Shown here piece by piece: positions 3,748 to 17,570 of a DNA stretch of 17,570 bases. The position numbers were made by a program, and so were the translations under genes. Each line of letters begins with the position of its first letter. Within the stretch, counting starts at the first letter, position 1. Below the pieces are notes generated by a model. It saw only the letters and a list, made by a program, of their open reading frames with translations. It did not search any database and was not told where the DNA came from. The stretch lies in IMG/VR virus record IMGVR_UViG_3300045988_058210, positions 1 through 17,570 of that record; one strand, 5' to 3'. The stretch comes from a virus.

Positions 3748-4706
3748 TATTCCACCTCGCTTTCCGGCGTGTTGTTTCCGTTGTTTTCCGGTGTGTCGTT
3801 TTCGTCATTTGTTGTGTTGAAAACATCCGGTCGGTTAATCGGTGTTACCATCTTAGAATTAAAACGTACATGGATATTCAATCCATATCGTTCATTGATA
3901 GCGTCCAATCCTCTTTGAATGGTAGCCAGATTTCCGTTTCTTGTCAACTCGATCTCTCCATCGTTGTAACTCGTTTCCGCGGAAACCAGCCGTTCCGGTT
4001 TTTCTACGCCGCTTGCTTCGATACCGAGATCAGCTAGACATTCTGCTACTTCTCTCTGTGCGGCGGTGTCAAGTTCGTTAAAAATTGGCTGTATTTTCAA
4101 ATCAATGGTATCAATTTGAATCTGTTTTCGCAGATCGTTTTTTGCTTTGATAAACGGAATATTTTTTACCCACTTCTGAATAAAGTTGTCAATGGATAAC
4201 TTCTGCGTAGAATCCCCGCTGATAACAACTGGCGTTCTCTGCTGAATGACGTTTACCCTTGTGGACGCTTTTTTCTCCGCTAGACTCTGCGAATGCAGAA
4301 TAATACTGAGAATTTCCGGTACGGCAAAAGGTCTGGCAAAAATCAACGAACTTTCGTTTTTGTCCGTCTGCTCATAATACTGACCATTCATAGCGTAGGC
4401 AATCCAATCGGTAGGAATTCCGTAAATATCGGGTTCGCCAACCAGATTAACACCGAAAACGCCGAATAGTCCGGTGATTGGTTCTTTTTTGAACAGGCAC
4501 ATTCCCTGCCATAATAGATAGGAGTTGAGCATCCGCGGCGGAATCTCATCCGGTAAACCGTCATACTCATACCGCGATAATGCCAGATTGACAAACTTGT
4601 CAAAAAAGTGCCGGAAATACATTTTTTCTTCCGGTGACGTATTCGGCTTGCTTTCCCAGTGTCCCCACACTTCCTTGTTACTCACCCGATACGGGTTATC
4701 ATACAT
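3747..4706 (-). CDS. Portal / upper collar connector protein (phi29 gp10-like)
   Basis: This 319-aa ORF has the SD AAGGAGGTG. Several segments align with phi29 gp10 as remembered: KPERLVSAETSYNDGEIELT versus [20 protein letters not shown], and INERYGLNIHVRFN versus INELYGLNVKVKFR. Its size is similar to gp10 (309 aa). Confidence 0.9.
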   Translation of the reverse strand: MYDNPYRVSNKEVWGHWESKPNTSPEEKMYFRHFFDKFVNLALSRYEYDGLPDEIPPRMLNSYLLWQGMCLFKKEPITGLFGVFGVNLVGEPDIYGIPTDWIAYAMNGQYYEQTDKNESSLIFARPFAVPEILSIILHSQSLAEKKASTRVNVIQQRTPVVISGDSTQKLSIDNFIQKWVKNIPFIKAKNDLRKQIQIDTIDLKIQPIFNELDTAAQREVAECLADLGIEASGVEKPERLVSAETSYNDGEIELTRNGNLATIQRGLDAINERYGLNIHVRFNSKMVTPINRPDVFNTTNDENDTPENNGNNTPESEVE

Positions 4707-4718
4707 GACATCACCTCC

Positions 4719-6296
4719 TTAATTATTGGAAAGACCATAGTTTCCAACGTCATCCGTGTGCCAGAACGTAACGCCTCGGTTAAACATTGCCTGCAAAAAA
4801 TTGATATCATCGGTAACACACGACCCATGCAGGCTGCAATTAACCGTTTTGACAAAATTCCAGTTTGACCGCCCGGTAATATTAGGTACTTTAATTTTGT
4901 GCGTTGCATATCCGTACATGGTAAAAAAATCGTCGATCGTTTTCGCCATCTGAGCGGTTACACTCATCACATGACAGTAAACTTGACTGCCGAACAATGC
5001 GGTGGCAACATAACTTCCAGATGAATTACCTTTTGCTGTCGGTGGAATCAAATCATGACTTTCTTTTTGTGCGTTAATGTTTTCGTTCAGTAGATATGTT
5101 CCTGTTGCCGCGGTATAAATGCTTTCAACGCCAGCAGCTAAATTTCCGCTTAATGCTCCTACTAATCCTCCGGCTAAATTTCCAATCTGCGATATTGCAT
5201 TCTGCTTTTTGGAGTAGTCCCATAACGGACTAGACTGCGCTAGAAAAGCCTGATAGCCGTCATTTGTCCAGGCACACTGTGGGAAATTATTGATGATAAA
5301 ACCGTATGGGGATTTTGACCCACCATTACGTTTATATTCACGCGGAGCCACAAAGATTGCAGGAATATTAAACATAACGCCATACACCTGCATGGTTAAT
5401 GCTCCATTTTTACCGTATTCGAAATTAAAAGTATGCTGTATTCCCGAACCATCGTTGACCAGACAATAACAATAGGGATACTGATATAGTTTATTATTTT
5501 TCGGGAGATAGCCGTCAAGTGCATCTGGTTTAACGGTTACTTGTGTATAAGCAGATGTATCTGTCTGGAAACAAGCTTCTGGTGCTTGATATACATTAAC
5601 AATCGCATCTCCGTTTCCGCTTTTGACGTACTTCTGGATAACTGTGATTAAGTCCGTATATTTTGTTTTCCGAGTAAATGTCAACCCCGATAAAATTCCC
5701 TGATTGACAATGGGTATAATATTTGTTCCGTTTTCGTCTGCACTTGCACTCAAACAATACTGCATCGGACCGAGATTCAAAAGTCTCTGTTCGCTCGGAT
5801 TGTCCACGTATTCCCCCGTTTCCAGATTTTCTGGCACTAAATTAATTCCGGCATAATCAGCTTTTTTGTCAATATGTTCCCTTTCCACATAGCACGGTTG
5901 AAGTACCACATCGTAAAAACTGTTCTGAAAACGATCGGGTTCGAAATAAATCTTGAAACTTCCGTCACTCAACCATTCTACGCGCGTCACAAAACCGAAA
6001 TACCATTCTTCCGTATAGGGGTTGTTCTGAAAAGCAAGATAATTGCATTTCAGAAATTCACTCTCATTCCCTTTTCCTTTATAAGTCAGTTCTCCCCATC
6101 TCACGGGCGCGGATTGCTTAAAAATATGGATTGCTTTTTCTCTTACGTGCGCCAGACAGCCAGCTTTTCCGTCGTTATAATATCTTACGTGTTCGTAATC
6201 ATTTCCCCATTCGATACCACTAGCCAAAATAACCGTGGTCTGCGGGGAAACCGCCGCCACATCTTCCTGTGGCGGCATCGGAATGAAATTATCCAT
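4719..6296 (-). CDS. Tail knob / distal tube protein (phi29 gp9-like)
   Basis: This 525-aa ORF has the SD GAGGGTGG. ILASGIEWGNDYEHVRYY and NYLAFQNNPYTEEWYFGFVTRVEW...IYFEPDRFQN parallel phi29 gp9 ILADVPFSNDYKNTRWF and SYIMFQNADYGNKWFYAFVTELEF...VHFEIDVLQT. It sits between the capsid and portal genes. Confidence 0.88.
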   Translation of the reverse strand: MDNFIPMPPQEDVAAVSPQTTVILASGIEWGNDYEHVRYYNDGKAGCLAHVREKAIHIFKQSAPVRWGELTYKGKGNESEFLKCNYLAFQNNPYTEEWYFGFVTRVEWLSDGSFKIYFEPDRFQNSFYDVVLQPCYVEREHIDKKADYAGINLVPENLETGEYVDNPSEQRLLNLGPMQYCLSASADENGTNIIPIVNQGILSGLTFTRKTKYTDLITVIQKYVKSGNGDAIVNVYQAPEACFQTDTSAYTQVTVKPDALDGYLPKNNKLYQYPYCYCLVNDGSGIQHTFNFEYGKNGALTMQVYGVMFNIPAIFVAPREYKRNGGSKSPYGFIINNFPQCAWTNDGYQAFLAQSSPLWDYSKKQNAISQIGNLAGGLVGALSGNLAAGVESIYTAATGTYLLNENINAQKESHDLIPPTAKGNSSGSYVATALFGSQVYCHVMSVTAQMAKTIDDFFTMYGYATHKIKVPNITGRSNWNFVKTVNCSLHGSCVTDDINFLQAMFNRGVTFWHTDDVGNYGLSNN

Positions 6297-9723: not shown

Positions 9724-9904
9724 CTCCTAAGTGCTGGCAAAGTGAATTAATTGCAGTCGTGTTCGCTTCTACGCTTTTCCGCAGTTCTTCCATTTCTGCC
9801 TTGTGTGCGTCTTTTTCTTTCACCAGATACCAGAAAAGTGCGCCGCAACAAACAATTGGAAAACCGAGACTTCCAACTAACTGCGTTACCATAGTTACAT
9901 CCAT
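9707..9904 (-). CDS. Holin-like membrane protein (BhlA/UviB-like architecture)
   Basis: This 65-aa ORF has the SD GGAGGT 6 nt upstream. It has a single N-terminal hydrophobic helix (LVGSLGFPIVCCGALFWYLV) followed by a charged coiled segment. It overlaps the endolysin start by 17 nt. Confidence 0.62.
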   Translation of the reverse strand: MDVTMVTQLVGSLGFPIVCCGALFWYLVKEKDAHKAEMEELRKSVEANTTAINSLCQHLGGGKNE

Positions 9905-10185
9905 GTTTCTACCTCCTTATCCTGCCATTTTAACCAGTCCTCAATTTCACTTAATTTATCACACATAATAAAATTATGAATGAAGCGGACAGGCGATTTA
10001 CTGTTATACGCGTTGCCATCCATAAAAAAGAAATCCCACAAATACCGAATGTGAGTCTCATAATTTTCATGTGGGACAATGATTAACGTGTCTTTTTCGT
10101 CCCCTTTATAGCGTACCGTATAAGCAAGATAAGCATTTTCTTTTTTCATCATGCTGACAATCATATTAAAAACGATATTTGCCAT
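9895..10185 (-). CDS. Hypothetical protein (96 aa), first gene after the internal promoter and structured leader
   Basis: The ORF has the SD AGGAG 5 nt upstream of its ATG and overlaps the holin start by 10 nt. I recognise no motifs. Confidence 0.6.
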   Translation of the reverse strand: MANIVFNMIVSMMKKENAYLAYTVRYKGDEKDTLIIVPHENYETHIRYLWDFFFMDGNAYNSKSPVRFIHNFIMCDKLSEIEDWLKWQDKEVETWM

Positions 10186-10200
10186 CTTTGCTCCTTTCTT

Positions 10201-10291
10201 CCCGTCCTTTGAAAAACAAGGAAACCTTTTGACCTGCCAGGACGGGGCGGTTTACTCAACCGTGGCAACCCCTCTAAAAAGGTTTCCCTAT
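10201..10291 (-). ncRNA. Structured RNA element (pseudoknot-capable, terminator-like closing stem); candidate small ncRNA (pRNA-like) or transcription attenuator
   Basis: Minus-strand RNA features, given in plus-strand coordinates. P1 is an 11-bp stem, GGAAACCUUUU (10287-10277) pairing with AAAAGGUUUCC (10230-10220), followed by UUGUUUUU (10219-10212). P2a is GGGG (10272-10269) with CCCC (10247-10244). P2b is CGGUU (10262-10258) with AACCG (10252-10248), loop GAGUA. The 6-nt bulge UUGCCA (10268-10263) is complementary to UGGCAG (10239-10234). An alternative helix pairs CCCGUCC (10246-10240) with GGACGGG (10207-10201), just upstream of the SD. Confidence 0.45.
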
Positions 10292-10297
10292 ATTTTC

Positions 10298-10326
10298 ATA
10301 ATACAGCTTTTCTGTCCGTTTGTCAA
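10298..10326 (-). promoter_or_regulatory. Near-consensus sigma-A/sigma-70 promoter (TTGACA-17-TATTAT)
   Basis: On the minus strand, TTGACA (10326-10321) is followed by the 17-nt spacer aacggacagaaaagctg and then TATTAT (10303-10298). It lies in the 165-bp gap between the ATPase gene and the 96-aa gene. Confidence 0.7.
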
Positions 10327-10334
10327 GTACAGTT

Positions 10335-10351
10335 GTCCGTCTCTTACGGAC
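10335..10351. promoter_or_regulatory. Palindrome GTCCGT-N5-ACGGAC, 8 bp upstream of the -35 box; an extra GTCCGT half-site lies in the spacer (10314-10319)
   Basis: Read directly: gtccgtctcttacggac. It has the same arm sequence and spacing as the ITR terminal palindromes at 10-26 and 41-57, and it overlaps the ATPase stop codon. Confidence 0.5.
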
Positions 10352-11490
10352 TATTTATAAAGATCAATCCCCAGCAACTCAACCGCCATATTTTTACTGT
10401 CAAGATCATCAAAACGCAAGTATGCTTTTTGGTACGCTTCAACTAACCTTACAAACAAGTAATCATAATGATCGAGCATAACCGTGTTTTGTGTGTGATC
10501 ACCGTCACGGAAAACAGCAACATAAGTGCAAGACGGGTTACACTTATGCGTGATATAAATATACCCATCTTCATAATAATCATATACCCCATACCTTTTC
10601 CCACTATGCTGAATCGTGAACAGATACCGCGACCGTCCGGTCGGCTTCTGCACAAACACGGCATCATCAATCAACATCTGATCTCCCACGCTCATGCTCT
10701 GCATGTAGTGACCGCCGCGGAACGCTTTCAAAGCGGTGTTCTCCCACATGGCTTTACTTGCACTATCGTTGTGCGTAAACTCACACACAAAACCAGTTCC
10801 ATGCAGCATTTTGGTTTCTTTCTGATACCGCTTGTGGATGCCGAAAAAAACAAAATGGGGATTGAGCAACGAAATATTATTGGATGCCATCACCAGTTTA
10901 AACCATCGGGACTGGCTTCCATTTCCACGACTGATCGTCAATAACAACGATTGCAGTTTTTCGGGTTCCCCTTTTACGTATTGCCCGCTTTCCATGCTAA
11001 ACTCATCAAAAAACAAAAAGTAGATATCCCGAAAATACGGTGACAGCTTTTTTACACTGTCCATCTTACTTCCAAAACTAAACGCGCATCCGAACGGCTC
11101 ACCATCCAAAAAGTACCGGACGACATTTCCGTTTTTGTCAAGATTTTTATAAGTAATCACACTTCCTAATTTTGGATACATTCTTAGCATATCTTCATAC
11201 ATTGCCGCCGCTCCCGTCATCTCCCCTTTTGTCCGAAAAATCCATCCCGTCTGCAATCCGTACTCTTTACACAAGATACAGCTTGCCGCGGCAAACGCAC
11301 TTGTCTTTCCAGCACTACGGTTGGAACACGTAATTGCTACGCCAGCGAAATCACCGTCTACGTCCGGCTCGGTAAATAACCGAATCGGATTGTAGTACTG
11401 AATCGTATTGCCTTTATCGTCTGCCGATTCAAATTTCACATCATAATCAGCGAAAAGTTTTTCCCAATTGATATCATTCCAAAAAATCAT
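10351..11490 (-). CDS. DNA packaging (encapsidation) ATPase, phi29 gp16-like
   Basis: This 379-aa ORF has Walker A CSNRSAGKTS (compare gp16 GARGIGKS) and Walker B IYFLFFDEFS (compare gp16 TIVFDEFI). The ATG has no adjacent SD; see the finding on the palindrome and mini-ORF at 11491-11530. Confidence 0.85.
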   Translation of the reverse strand: MIFWNDINWEKLFADYDVKFESADDKGNTIQYYNPIRLFTEPDVDGDFAGVAITCSNRSAGKTSAFAAASCILCKEYGLQTGWIFRTKGEMTGAAAMYEDMLRMYPKLGSVITYKNLDKNGNVVRYFLDGEPFGCAFSFGSKMDSVKKLSPYFRDIYFLFFDEFSMESGQYVKGEPEKLQSLLLTISRGNGSQSRWFKLVMASNNISLLNPHFVFFGIHKRYQKETKMLHGTGFVCEFTHNDSASKAMWENTALKAFRGGHYMQSMSVGDQMLIDDAVFVQKPTGRSRYLFTIQHSGKRYGVYDYYEDGYIYITHKCNPSCTYVAVFRDGDHTQNTVMLDHYDYLFVRLVEAYQKAYLRFDDLDSKNMAVELLGIDLYK

Positions 11491-12772: not shown

Positions 12773-14932
12773 CTATTCCGGTAACACTCCGTCTTGAGAG
12801 TTTACCAATACTTCATAGTATTCATTCGATACACCTAAGGTATAAGTGGTATCAAGGATTCCAATGTTACTAGCTGTTAAAATTTCTTCCCCGTTTACTT
12901 TGATGTAATGGGGTTTCGAGTTGTTAAAGCAACTGATTGTCCGGCCGACATTTTCCATCCGGCGGCAGAGACGGAAATTATTGCAGCACTTTAAGTTTTC
13001 CGCTCCCAGTTTCTTATTCATGCCAGCGACCGTAGACGTAAAACGCACGGGGTCTTTGCCAGATTGCGCCGCTTTTTCGTCCCATTCCACGCTGCAGTAT
13101 TTTTTCGCGCCGAGTGTTTTAAACTGGATATACAGATCATCCAGTTCCCAGACGCCGAGAATGTAACGGTTGTCACCAACGTCACAAAACGCCGGAATGT
13201 CATTTTCAATTGCACGTTTTGCCAGTATTTTATTTTTGGCGTCAAATTCCGGAATGTGTGCTTCCGGATGCAGAAATTTGATGCTGTCGGTATCACAGTA
13301 CACAACATCCATTCCCACCACGTCCAGCATATCTTGTAACTGCTTTCTTGCATGGGCGGTAACGTAGATTCCCCATTGATAGTGCAAAAAACTATTCTTT
13401 CCCGCGTAGTACGTTTTCAGTGCTTTTTCCGCATCTGCTTTTTCCCGATGCCATTCACCCGTAAAAGCATCCATCGCCCATTCGTCCTGTAAAAGATCTG
13501 TCACACACATTCCGAACGTGCTGTTTAACTTATTCTTAGACTTCATGTACTCGTAGACTTTATCGGGGTTTCCTTTCAACTGGCTTTTTGCGATAAAAAA
13601 TGACATCATCGTTTTACGCATACTTTCCGGTAACTTTCCGCGCGCGGCTACGTAGCACTCCGAGACGGTAAAAAAGTCGTAGTCGTACTGGTTTCTTATG
13701 ATTGCTAAGTCAATTTCCGTCATTGCTATTTCGCAGCAAGCAATAGACAATACGCGTCCATTATCAATCACACAATCTTTCCCGTGCTTCTGACACTTTG
13801 ACAGCGGGATATACGGGACGGGGATATTTTCTTTCATACGCAAGTTGTCAAATTGTACCCGCATGATAACACAACGTGTAGCACACAAGTTGTCAAACTG
13901 TCCCTGCGTTTTGATCTCAACCGCCCGAAACGCACTCATGGGATAATACTTACTTGCGATCTGCGCCGGATAACTACTCGAAATATCCATACTTCCCATA
14001 ACGATCACAGATTCACCTTTTTTCGCTGTGATCGTGTGCCCCGCGTGAATGCGGTTGGCGTGGGTATTGCCGCCACGGAACGCGTCTTTGCAAAGCTGGT
14101 ACTGCGGTAACGTCAAAGCCAGATCGGCAAATACTCCCGGATAATAACCGCTATCTGCCTGCATGGCGCGGCGAAATTCGCGGCGGACGTAGCCAGTTGA
14201 GGTAAGGGGGATTTCTGCAAGGTTGTCATCTTTTCGTAAGGCGCGGATGCATTCGCACAATCCACGAACGTCATTGTAGCAATATCCCTGTTCAACGTCC
14301 GTTAAAGGTGTTTTTGGTGTACGTAGTTTTTTATAGTCATACGTATCAACCAGTTTATAGTGGGTCACGCCCGCACTGTTCTCACAAAATTTTGAAAGAC
14401 TCATGTTGCTTAAAAAATACGAGCATCGAAACTCAATCCCGTATTTATACGCATAACATTTCATAACTTTATGTGCATCCCGCGCAAAGATTTCATCAAA
14501 TTCTATGAAATCTTTCATGAATTGAAATTCATAGGAAAGATTATGAACGTAGACGACAGCGCGTTTCGTATCAGATGTTTTCAAATACAAATGTACACCC
14601 TCACAAAAACGAATAAACTCGTTCCATGTTCGTCCGAAACAGACGGTATCTTTTAAACAGAACTGCCAGTGATACATGAAAGCATCACCTTTTACTACTT
14701 TTTCCCCTGTTTTATGATAGCGTTTATAATCTAATTTTTCCAGTGTGGTTGTCTCAATATCAAACGCCATTTCTACGTCATAATAAACGATAGGATTTTT
14801 CTTTCTTCCTCGTTTGCGGCATTCGCGCAACGTCTGGTAATCGGAAAAAGGAAAATCATTGACCGAATAAATTGTTTCACGTGAAACATCTTCGTTTCCG
14901 TTCACGATAACAGGGACATCCAATTGATACAT
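12773..14932 (-). CDS. Protein-primed family-B DNA polymerase (phi29 gp2-like)
   Basis: This 719-aa ORF carries every expected motif: Exo I FDIETTT, Exo II VHNLSYEFQF, Exo III YCYNDVRGL, YxGG-like AFRGGNT, motif A MDISSSYPAQ, motif B KNKLNSTFGMC, motif C VYCDTDSIKF and KxY LGAKKYC. Confidence 0.97.
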   Translation of the reverse strand: MYQLDVPVIVNGNEDVSRETIYSVNDFPFSDYQTLRECRKRGRKKNPIVYYDVEMAFDIETTTLEKLDYKRYHKTGEKVVKGDAFMYHWQFCLKDTVCFGRTWNEFIRFCEGVHLYLKTSDTKRAVVYVHNLSYEFQFMKDFIEFDEIFARDAHKVMKCYAYKYGIEFRCSYFLSNMSLSKFCENSAGVTHYKLVDTYDYKKLRTPKTPLTDVEQGYCYNDVRGLCECIRALRKDDNLAEIPLTSTGYVRREFRRAMQADSGYYPGVFADLALTLPQYQLCKDAFRGGNTHANRIHAGHTITAKKGESVIVMGSMDISSSYPAQIASKYYPMSAFRAVEIKTQGQFDNLCATRCVIMRVQFDNLRMKENIPVPYIPLSKCQKHGKDCVIDNGRVLSIACCEIAMTEIDLAIIRNQYDYDFFTVSECYVAARGKLPESMRKTMMSFFIAKSQLKGNPDKVYEYMKSKNKLNSTFGMCVTDLLQDEWAMDAFTGEWHREKADAEKALKTYYAGKNSFLHYQWGIYVTAHARKQLQDMLDVVGMDVVYCDTDSIKFLHPEAHIPEFDAKNKILAKRAIENDIPAFCDVGDNRYILGVWELDDLYIQFKTLGAKKYCSVEWDEKAAQSGKDPVRFTSTVAGMNKKLGAENLKCCNNFRLCRRMENVGRTISCFNNSKPHYIKVNGEEILTASNIGILDTTYTLGVSNEYYEVLVNSQDGVLPE
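14873..14888. promoter_or_regulatory. Second copy of the 16-bp palindrome TGTTTCACGTGAAACA, inside the 5' end of the polymerase gene
   Basis: Read directly. It encodes residues VSRET, about 45 nt downstream of the polymerase ATG. Confidence 0.45.
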
Positions 14933-16754: not shown

Positions 16755-17570
16755 CGAAGTGTCCGTCACCCGGAGGGCGCGCGAAGCGCTACAGCCTCCG
16801 GCGGTCATCGGCGGACAACCGCACGATCACAAGCGATAACTAACATGACTCATAGGATATGACTGGCAGTCCGCGCAGCGGACGACCCCGAACGGGCAGG
16901 CGCGGACGGAAAGGACGCGCCGTGTCCGTCACCCGGAGGGCGCGCGAAGCACTTCCGCCTCCGGCGGTCACTGCCAGACATCCGAGCGTTACTGCACGAT
17001 TACTAAAGTTACACATAGATAACCGACGGCAGTCCGCGCCGCGGACGACCCCGAATGGGCAGGCGCGGCACTTCCGCCTCCGGCGGTCACTGGCAGACAT
17101 CCGAGCGTTACTGCACGATTACTAAAGTTACACATAGATAACCGACGGCAGTCCGCGCCGTGTCCGTCACCCGCGGACACTTTAGCAGACTAAAGTGAGT
17201 TTCCGTTTCGGTTGTGTCCGCGACCCGCGGACAAACGGTCGGTTTTGTCCACTTTTCGGGCAAAATGAGTAAGTATTTCGGAAGAATTGTGCGAGATTCG
17301 GGTGGAAAACGTGAATATTTGTGAAATTGTATAGACAATTAGGCTGGACTAACACTTTAGTCGGGTGAAGCGTTTTTGTCAAGTTGGAAAAATGCATAAA
17401 AATTTTCGGGCATATGTGTTGTAATAAGTATTAAAAGTAAACAAATGCAATGAAATAGTTTGCAAAAACGGTGTCTTTCTCACGCGGACACCGTTTCTTT
17501 TGTGCAATGTGCTGTCCGCCGTACGCGGACAAAATTGGGAAAATGTCCGCGTGGGACGGACTATATATAT
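16755..17570. repeat. Right inverted terminal repeat (ITR-R), 816 bp
   Basis: Reverse complement of 1-816, with coordinate x mapping to 17571-x. The mirrored ORFs 16840..17100, 16859..17125, 16989..17180, 17108..17338 and 17182..17397 translate identically to their left-end counterparts. Confidence 0.95.

Follow-up and report, generated by a model that had tools for sequence, protein, structure and literature searches.

The window analyzed here, the whole stretch of 17,570 bp (17.57 kb), is the complete linear genome of a small phi29-like gut phage, bounded by inverted terminal repeats of 816 bp that are 100% identical (positions 1-816 and 16755-17570). Nearly all of its large genes are carried by the minus strand. 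These include a family-B DNA polymerase of the protein-primed type (12773-14932) and a packaging ATPase of 379 aa that belongs to the phi29 gp16 family (10351-11490; phrog_2150 terminase, E 2e-41) and whose homologues carry Pfam PF05894 (Podovirus_Gp16). The other minus-strand genes encode a 96-aa protein, a holin, two lysins, a major head protein, a tail protein, a phi29-type upper collar/connector, a lower collar and a 667-aa protein. Relatives of this phage carry Phi29_MCP, phi29_gp9_C and Phage_connector. A whole-genome near-identity search against GenBank phages gave no match. Based on the ATPase, the nearest cultured phages are the Clostridium phages HM2 (42% identity) and CS229P1-3 (33%; Clostridium symbiosum), and the identity to the ATPases of Bacillus phi29-type phages is 23-25%. 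The related contigs come mostly from human gut metagenomes. The host is probably a gut bacterium of the Clostridium type. The terminal repeats are unusually long and G+C-rich (49%), with tandem repeats of 119 and 163 nt at 398-812; they also contain an inward-facing promoter-like site (TTGACA-17-TAAAGT, 189-217) and an 86-aa ORF (471-731, mirrored at 16840-17100).

Directly past the ATPase stop codon, the minus strand carries an inverted repeat, GTCCGTAAGAGACGGAC (10335-10351), without a U-run on that strand. It is followed by a sigma-70-type promoter, TTGACA-17-TATTAT (10298-10326), with the -35 box at 10326-10321, a 17-nt spacer and the -10 box at 10303-10298. A near-consensus promoter downstream of the ATPase gene had been predicted from the sequence, and it proved to be the top promoter-like site of the window (11/12). 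In 65 relatives the -35 box is invariant, the -10 box is conserved and the distance to the following helix is fixed. The predicted transcription start, at about 10291, lies 3 nt ahead of the closing helix of a structured RNA whose 70-nt core (10219-10288, minus strand) forms a three-way junction. A U-run, UUGUUUUUC (10211-10219), comes after this helix, and then the Shine-Dalgarno (SD) sequence (10197-10191) of the first late gene (96 aa; 9895-10197 with its SD), which precedes the holin, lysin and structural genes. The gene order around this first late gene is syntenic in L081-L083. The 96-aa gene itself (9895-10185, minus strand), the first after the RNA, keeps its position in relatives (91-96 aa), and its product matched no PHROG family.

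The RNA is closed by the A helix, in which GGGAAACCUUUU (10288-10277) pairs with AAAAGGUUUCCU (10230-10219); this helix was confirmed, with 12 bp (11 Watson-Crick pairs and one G.U) in place of the 11 bp of the original prediction. The two inner helices predicted with it are also present on the minus strand, and both covary: the C helix pairs GGGG (10272-10269) with CCCC (10247-10244), and the E hairpin pairs CGGUU (10262-10258) with AACCG (10252-10248) around the loop GAGUA. Between them lies the bulge UUGCCA (10263-10268), the counterpart of the CE or right-hand loop of phi29. The remaining part of the junction is a D mini-hairpin, GUCC-UGGC-AGGUC (10231-10243), with the loop (U)GGC at 10239-10236, the counterpart of the D or left-hand loop of phi29. 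The bulge (10268-10263) can form five Watson-Crick pairs and one G.U with UGGCAG (10239-10234), and its GCCA is complementary to the UGGC of the D loop. This complementarity had been predicted and does covary, but its conserved part is only 4-5 nt long (GCCA/UGGC). The UGGC, which had been taken for a single strand, is instead the loop of a covarying hairpin (10243-10231), since covariation supports the hairpin GUC(C/U)U-UGGC-A(G/A)GUC. The minimum-energy fold favours a nested UUGCCA:UGGCAG pairing over GGGG/CCCC, whereas covariation backs GGGG/CCCY. The D loop of the window is 1 nt shorter than in all aligned relatives because of a deletion at 10239-10240: the missing nucleotide, between GUCC and UGGC, is U, C or A in every aligned relative. 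The deletion leaves a loop of 3 nt, or of 5 nt with the U-A pair opened, and could reflect natural variation or faulty assembly.

The element is carried by more than 100 related phage contigs. It was found in all 80 of the 80 closest IMG/VR relatives (ATPase 88-97% identical), with 81-95% identity, and its core is far better conserved than the post-ATPase hairpin or the promoter spacer. In relatives with about 70% ATPase identity (L081, L082, L246, and L247), the A helix is fully rewritten and its pairing kept, as in GGGGAGAGACGUA with UACGUCUUUCCUC and GGGGAGAACCGGA with UCCGGUUUUCCUC. A covariance model of the element, R1, which gives the window element 116 bits, finds homologues at 45-50% ATPase identity (L084/L248/L254/L255/L264, L249/L266, and L104). 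In the MAFFT alignment, both sides changed in 9 of 28 pairs, compared with 2.1 in shuffles (0/500); another MAFFT alignment, of the L086/HM2-type RNAs, had too little structural consistency for pair counts and was set aside. In the model-fitted alignment, which is biased towards R1, both-side changes affected 23 of 30 pairs, compared with 5.1 in shuffles (0/500), and slid controls were far lower. The D stem contributes a C-G pair replaced by U-A in four sequences and longer GC stems in L084 and L249, and the E loop is GAGA in several mini-class relatives. Examination of homologous loci for covariation, one of the checks proposed along with the original prediction, revealed compensatory changes in every helix and conservation of the core, and by this comparative evidence the element is a real conserved structure.

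Single-sequence statistics are weaker. The folding z-score is -1.56, with 14 of 200 shuffles folding equally well. A descriptor of pRNA-shaped folds (pRNA being the packaging RNA of phi29) ranks the element first in the genome with a score of 34.5, within the range obtained on shuffles (27.8-36.1), and one of 12 shuffled strands scored as high. Taken alone, the element does not beat chance. The descriptor is too permissive in AT-rich DNA, and its top match in many relatives is a false AT-rich site; it was thus used on restricted regions only, and the complementarity between bulge and D loop was judged on parses chosen without it.

The complementarity between bulge and D loop recurs across lineages with different letters. 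Six complement types of this pair occur in the mini class: GCCA/UGGC (window clade, L081/82, L249, and L274), ACCA/UGGU (L104), UGCC/GGCG (L083/84), CGAC/GUCG (L256/257), AGCCC/GGGCU (L265-269) and UGGCU/AGCCA (L272). The larger RNAs of other clades have the pairs UGACU/AGUCA, AGACA/UGUCU, GAACUA/UAGUUU, GUAGU/ACUAC and UACA/UGUA, and further UAGC/GCUG, AGCA/UGCU, UAUGC/GCAUA, UACACA/UGUGUG and UGAC/GUCA. With parses picked from the helices alone, ignoring complementarity, 30 of 33 lineage representatives showed 4 nt or more of complementarity to their own partner loop, while cross pairs did so in 20%; no permutation out of 5000 did as well, a count that is not a strict probability because the sequences are related to one another. 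The arms that carry the two loops differ between size classes. The larger versions resemble phi29 in having a C arm (8-11 bp) that far exceeds the D arm (4-5 bp). The two arms of the mini class (C arm 4 bp, D arm 3-5 bp) have similar lengths, so that an intramolecular (cis) pseudoknot is sterically plausible there.

In phi29-type phages, pRNA molecules join through intermolecular loop-loop pairs into a ring on the portal, which is required for packaging and absent from mature virions. The A helix of the phi29 pRNA binds the ATPase, and the phi29 connector binds the pRNA through a basic N-terminal RKR patch. When R1 was compared with RF00044 on phi29, the order of elements was the same: A, C, bulge, E hairpin, C', D hairpin, A'. 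When a descriptor was built on this pRNA order, it reproduced the parse published for phi29 with its AACC/GGUU pair (bulge GAUUAAACC, E hairpin CUGA-UUGAGU-UCAG, D loop UGGUU), and the element fits this descriptor too. Both RNAs share a G/C-rich, covarying Watson-Crick complementarity of 4-5 nt between bulge and D loop, GG/CC pairs that close the C helix beside the bulge, and UUGAGU in the E loop. The phages share a gp16-type ATPase, a phi29-type connector and a linear genome of the protein-primed type. There are also clear differences. The phi29 pRNA measures 117-174 nt, compared with about 70 nt here, around half of the minimal phi29 pRNA; its A helix has about 25 bp, compared with 12-15 bp, and its C helix 9-10 bp, compared with 4 bp. 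It has a U-rich junction bulge that is absent from the mini RNA. The connector of the window phage, whose N-terminus reads MYDNPYRVSNKE and begins MYDNPYRVSNKEVWGHWESK, is without a basic patch of the RKR type; this is weak evidence against a pRNA, since the contact between RNA and connector could differ. The phi29 pRNA gene lies at the left genome end behind the early promoter A1 (PMC6266182), in contrast to the position beside the ATPase gene here.

The known models did not recognize the element. RF00044 had no match at its gathering score or at E up to 10 in the window, nor at E up to 10 in a 121-nt sequence of the element; its threshold is 100 bits, and phi29 itself scores 145 bits. Rfam searches of the window, 17 related loci and the 121-nt element, corresponding to the scan for pRNA and riboswitch models proposed earlier, returned no pRNA, riboswitch or ribozyme family, and the low-threshold matches were noise only (bxd_1, Plastid-psbA-2). 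A ribozyme topology of the HDV-like or another kind (an order b-c-d-d'-b'-c', resembling a nested double pseudoknot) was considered and rejected, given the 4-bp helix, the lack of a P4 and of an Rfam match. Conversely, R1 does not find phi29 or the Streptococcus phage Cp-1, with only a 15-bit match elsewhere in Cp-1, and it is too insensitive to join the mini class with the larger RNAs or with phi29. Homology to known pRNAs thus rests on layout and not on sequence. The statement that no other pRNA is evident in the genome held true, as Rfam, R1 and the descriptor found no other candidate in the window.

A putative pRNA of Cp-1 was reportedly described by Martin and colleagues in 1996. It resembles the present case in having been claimed outside Bacillus phages and in being invisible to known models, but the ATPase gene of Cp-1 overlaps the holin gene, so that no RNA follows it; the pRNA is not annotated in the Cp-1 GenBank record. 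The claim has been cited in a study whose pRNA covariance model was unable to find this RNA reliably (PMC6266182). Known pRNAs come from the Bacillus phages phi29 and the Nf/M2/B103, SF5, GA-1 and DLc1/Goe4 groups, and according to reviews from 2024 and 2016 the pRNA occurs in phi29 and its relatives among the phages of Bacillus alone (PMC11476376; PMC5066667). A 2025 study reported 12 more pRNAs, obtained with Infernal models seeded from phi29, GA-1 and DLc1, and stressed the same rule of loop-loop covariation among known pRNAs (PMC12670572). In the open-access literature, we found no report of pRNA-like RNAs beside the ATPase genes of Clostridium or metagenomic phages.

Phages far beyond the window clade also carry RNAs of this layout beside the ATPase gene. 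In distant phi29-like contigs they start about 20-30 nt past the ATPase stop codon, and in the cultured Clostridium phages HM2 and CS229P1 a larger RNA of this layout directly follows it. The RNA of HM2 is unannotated and lies at 2600-2705 of the locus L252 (around 6090-6200 of LT600745), with the bulge/D-loop pair GUAGU/ACUAC; that of CS229P1 (OP172772), also unannotated, lies at about 2555-2665 of the locus L253, with the pair CUGUA/UACAG. What follows the RNA varies. The L116, L158 and CS229P1 types show an isolated group of ATPase gene, RNA and terminator whose flanking genes are on the opposite strand. The L086 and HM2 types have a separate terminator hairpin for the RNA, ahead of the late gene, and -10-like boxes both before the RNA and past the terminator. 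In L104, the RNA lies about 430 nt past the ATPase gene, directly before an SD and without a U-run. As some clades have no gene downstream of the RNA, the role that these RNAs share would not be leader regulation.

A tRNA-like element lies immediately 3' of the RNA in L084, L248, L254, L264 and L249. In the clade at 46-49% ATPase identity, it was located at 2734-2811 in L084, at about 6940-7005 in L083 and at about 2495-2575 in L249. The Rfam tRNA model gives the L084 copy 56 bits, and ARAGORN called no tRNA there. The anticodon loop of this copy is expanded to 16 nt and includes CCUCC, just upstream of a GGAGG SD. This element may be a processing signal or an anti-SD element, and it would allow the 3' end of the RNA to be released by tRNA-processing enzymes.

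The RNA of the window clade has features of a leader: the only evident promoter stands before it and the first late gene behind it. The competing helix described in the original prediction is present, formed by CCCGUCC (10246-10240) and a 3' arm, GGACGGG (10201-10207, minus strand); it excludes the C and D helices and ends 3 nt before the SD (10197-10191). It also covaries: one position is U-A in 45 sequences, C-G in 10, U.G in four and G.U in one, and another changes from C-G to U-A. Forcing this helix costs the read-through leader no more than 0.4 kcal/mol relative to its minimum-energy fold. The terminator-like end fared less well. The U-run is present in the window clade, L081 and L246, and is a possible weak intrinsic terminator or 3'-end signal, but L082/L247 have a poor version of it and L084, L249 and L104 have none, and a consensus terminator scan of the window did not list it at 10211-10219. 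For a discrete small RNA, the element thus has a strong and conserved promoter and, at its 3' end, only this weak U-run.

The lambda late leader offers a precedent for such an arrangement: the promoter PR' yields the 6S RNA, which ends at tR' and is read through with the protein Q. The two loci share a strong promoter, a short structured RNA, a terminator-like end and, behind it, lysis and structural genes. They differ in that no evidence of an antiterminator was found here, the terminator is weak and not conserved, and the RNA recurs in relatives in which it is not a leader.

Alternatively, the RNA could be chiefly a late-operon leader that acts in cis through attenuation, as a riboswitch or as a switch operated by a bound protein. 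Transcription would end at the closing helix with its U-run until a signal brings about the alternative fold and with it expression of the holin, lysin and structural genes. We consider this unlikely. The strong promoter before it, the first late gene after it, the U-run behind the closing helix, and an alternative helix that covaries and is nearly iso-energetic with the minimum-energy fold are all as expected of such a leader, and the bulge and D loop could make a ligand-binding pseudoknot in cis. Together, the late-leader position and the covarying alternative helix point to a regulatory role and count against a pRNA. However, the alternative helix has its 3' arm beyond the U-run and thus cannot block termination during transcription, and a classical antiterminator reading was rejected on this ground. 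An attenuator would combine a conserved terminator with an excluding helix formed before the U-run, a combination that the element does not have. The attenuator or switch alternative raised in the original prediction is still not wrong, as its competing helix is real and covaries. No riboswitch or leader family of Rfam was matched, and other clades have RNAs of this layout behind which there is no gene to regulate. Two copies of the heptamer ACGGACA at the promoter (see below) would also provide a simpler route to timing.

A second alternative, which we also regard as improbable, is that the element is a structured RNA linked to the ATPase gene with a function other than packaging, for instance an operator for autoregulation of the ATPase, a stabilizer of the 3' end of its mRNA or a decoy against host defence, and that bulge and D loop form an intramolecular pseudoknot. 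The adjacency to the ATPase gene across clades agrees with this, as do the clades without an evident RNA promoter, in which the RNA lies between the ATPase gene and the terminator like a 3' UTR; the similar arm lengths of the mini class would permit the contact in cis. Yet the window RNA is preceded by a near-consensus promoter of its own, set off from the ATPase gene by a hairpin, and the C arm of the larger versions, much longer than their D arm, disfavours such a contact. The pRNA layout and the covarying loop pair would moreover be a coincidence in just the phage group that uses pRNA. Finally, a promoter accompanied by a chance hairpin without a function of its own would suit the weak single-sequence statistics, but it is refuted by covariation, the core being more conserved than its flanks and showing many compensatory changes, and we give it hardly any credence.

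The reading that we favour, with moderate confidence and by analogy with phi29, is that the element is the gene for a miniature phi29-type pRNA beside the packaging ATPase gene, with a core of about 70 nt and a predicted transcript of about 80 nt. The topology, the loop covariation, the position after the ATPase gene and the lack of another candidate in the window all speak for the pRNA-like RNA of the original prediction. The element is probably a shrunken, so far unannotated relative of the phi29 pRNA. Since neither RF00044 nor R1 links it to known pRNAs, its size is small and the connector has no RKR patch, we file it as pRNA-like, a probable distant miniature variant, and not as a member of the Rfam family.

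As a miniature pRNA, the element could work as follows. The conserved strong promoter would start a transcript about 3 nt before the A helix, which pairs its 5' and 3' ends. By analogy with phi29, the bulge of one molecule would pair with the D loop of the next one, building an RNA ring at the empty head's portal. The gp16-type ATPase encoded by the neighbouring gene would dock on the A helices, and the motor would package the protein-capped linear genome. In the window clade, the RNA gene appears to be fused to the leader of the late operon. Part of the transcripts would stop at the weak U-run and give free RNA, and those that read through would bear the 3' arm of the alternative helix, which would unfold the C and D helices. 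Copies still joined to the mRNA would thus probably be prevented from adopting the packaging fold. Judging from the alternative pairing, a second role as a switchable, refolding late-operon leader is probable in this clade; since the competing helix is real and covaries, this role is likely an add-on.

A broader proposal is more tentative, and we put it forward as a possibility that we would not yet bet on: the pRNA would be general and ancestral in gp16-type motors, with a gene that usually lies right behind that of the ATPase and a size that can shrink to about 70 nt. In the window clade it would have two functions, serving packaging once released as free RNA and otherwise refolding, through the alternative helix, as the leader of the late mRNA. 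The supply of packaging RNA would then be tied to late gene expression. If these RNAs are pRNAs, an RNA-dependent packaging motor would be widespread in uncultivated gut and environmental phages, and the origin and minimal requirements of the pRNA could be tested with a natural version of about 70 nt and many variants of the loop pair. The cultured Clostridium phages HM2 and CS229P1-3 would serve as test systems, the annotation of small podophages would gain a missing gene, and RNA nanotechnology would gain three-way-junction scaffolds. The new pRNAs of the 2025 survey were found only with models seeded from Bacillus phages (PMC12670572).

The heptamer ACGGACA occurs nine times in the window, compared with 2.2 expected (0/200 shuffles). 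Two minus-strand copies stand at the late promoter, 21 nt apart, one in the inverted repeat (10340-10334) and one in the promoter spacer (10319-10313). A further minus-strand site (4361-4367) is just 3' of another promoter-like site (4402-4374). The plus-strand sites are at 404-410, 642-648 and 805-811 and are mirrored in 16760-17167, that is, three per terminal repeat. The timing of the strong late promoter may depend on a DNA-binding protein instead of the weak U-run, and ACGGACA may be the operator at which such a phage regulator acts.

Lastly, the large terminal gene of the relative L081 (13817-15880) encodes a protein of 687 aa that is the positional equivalent of the 667-aa protein of the window. 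It has Pfam matches to Anti-Pycsar_Apyc1 and Lactamase_B, and from these domain matches it is possible that this virion protein would hold an anti-defence nuclease domain.
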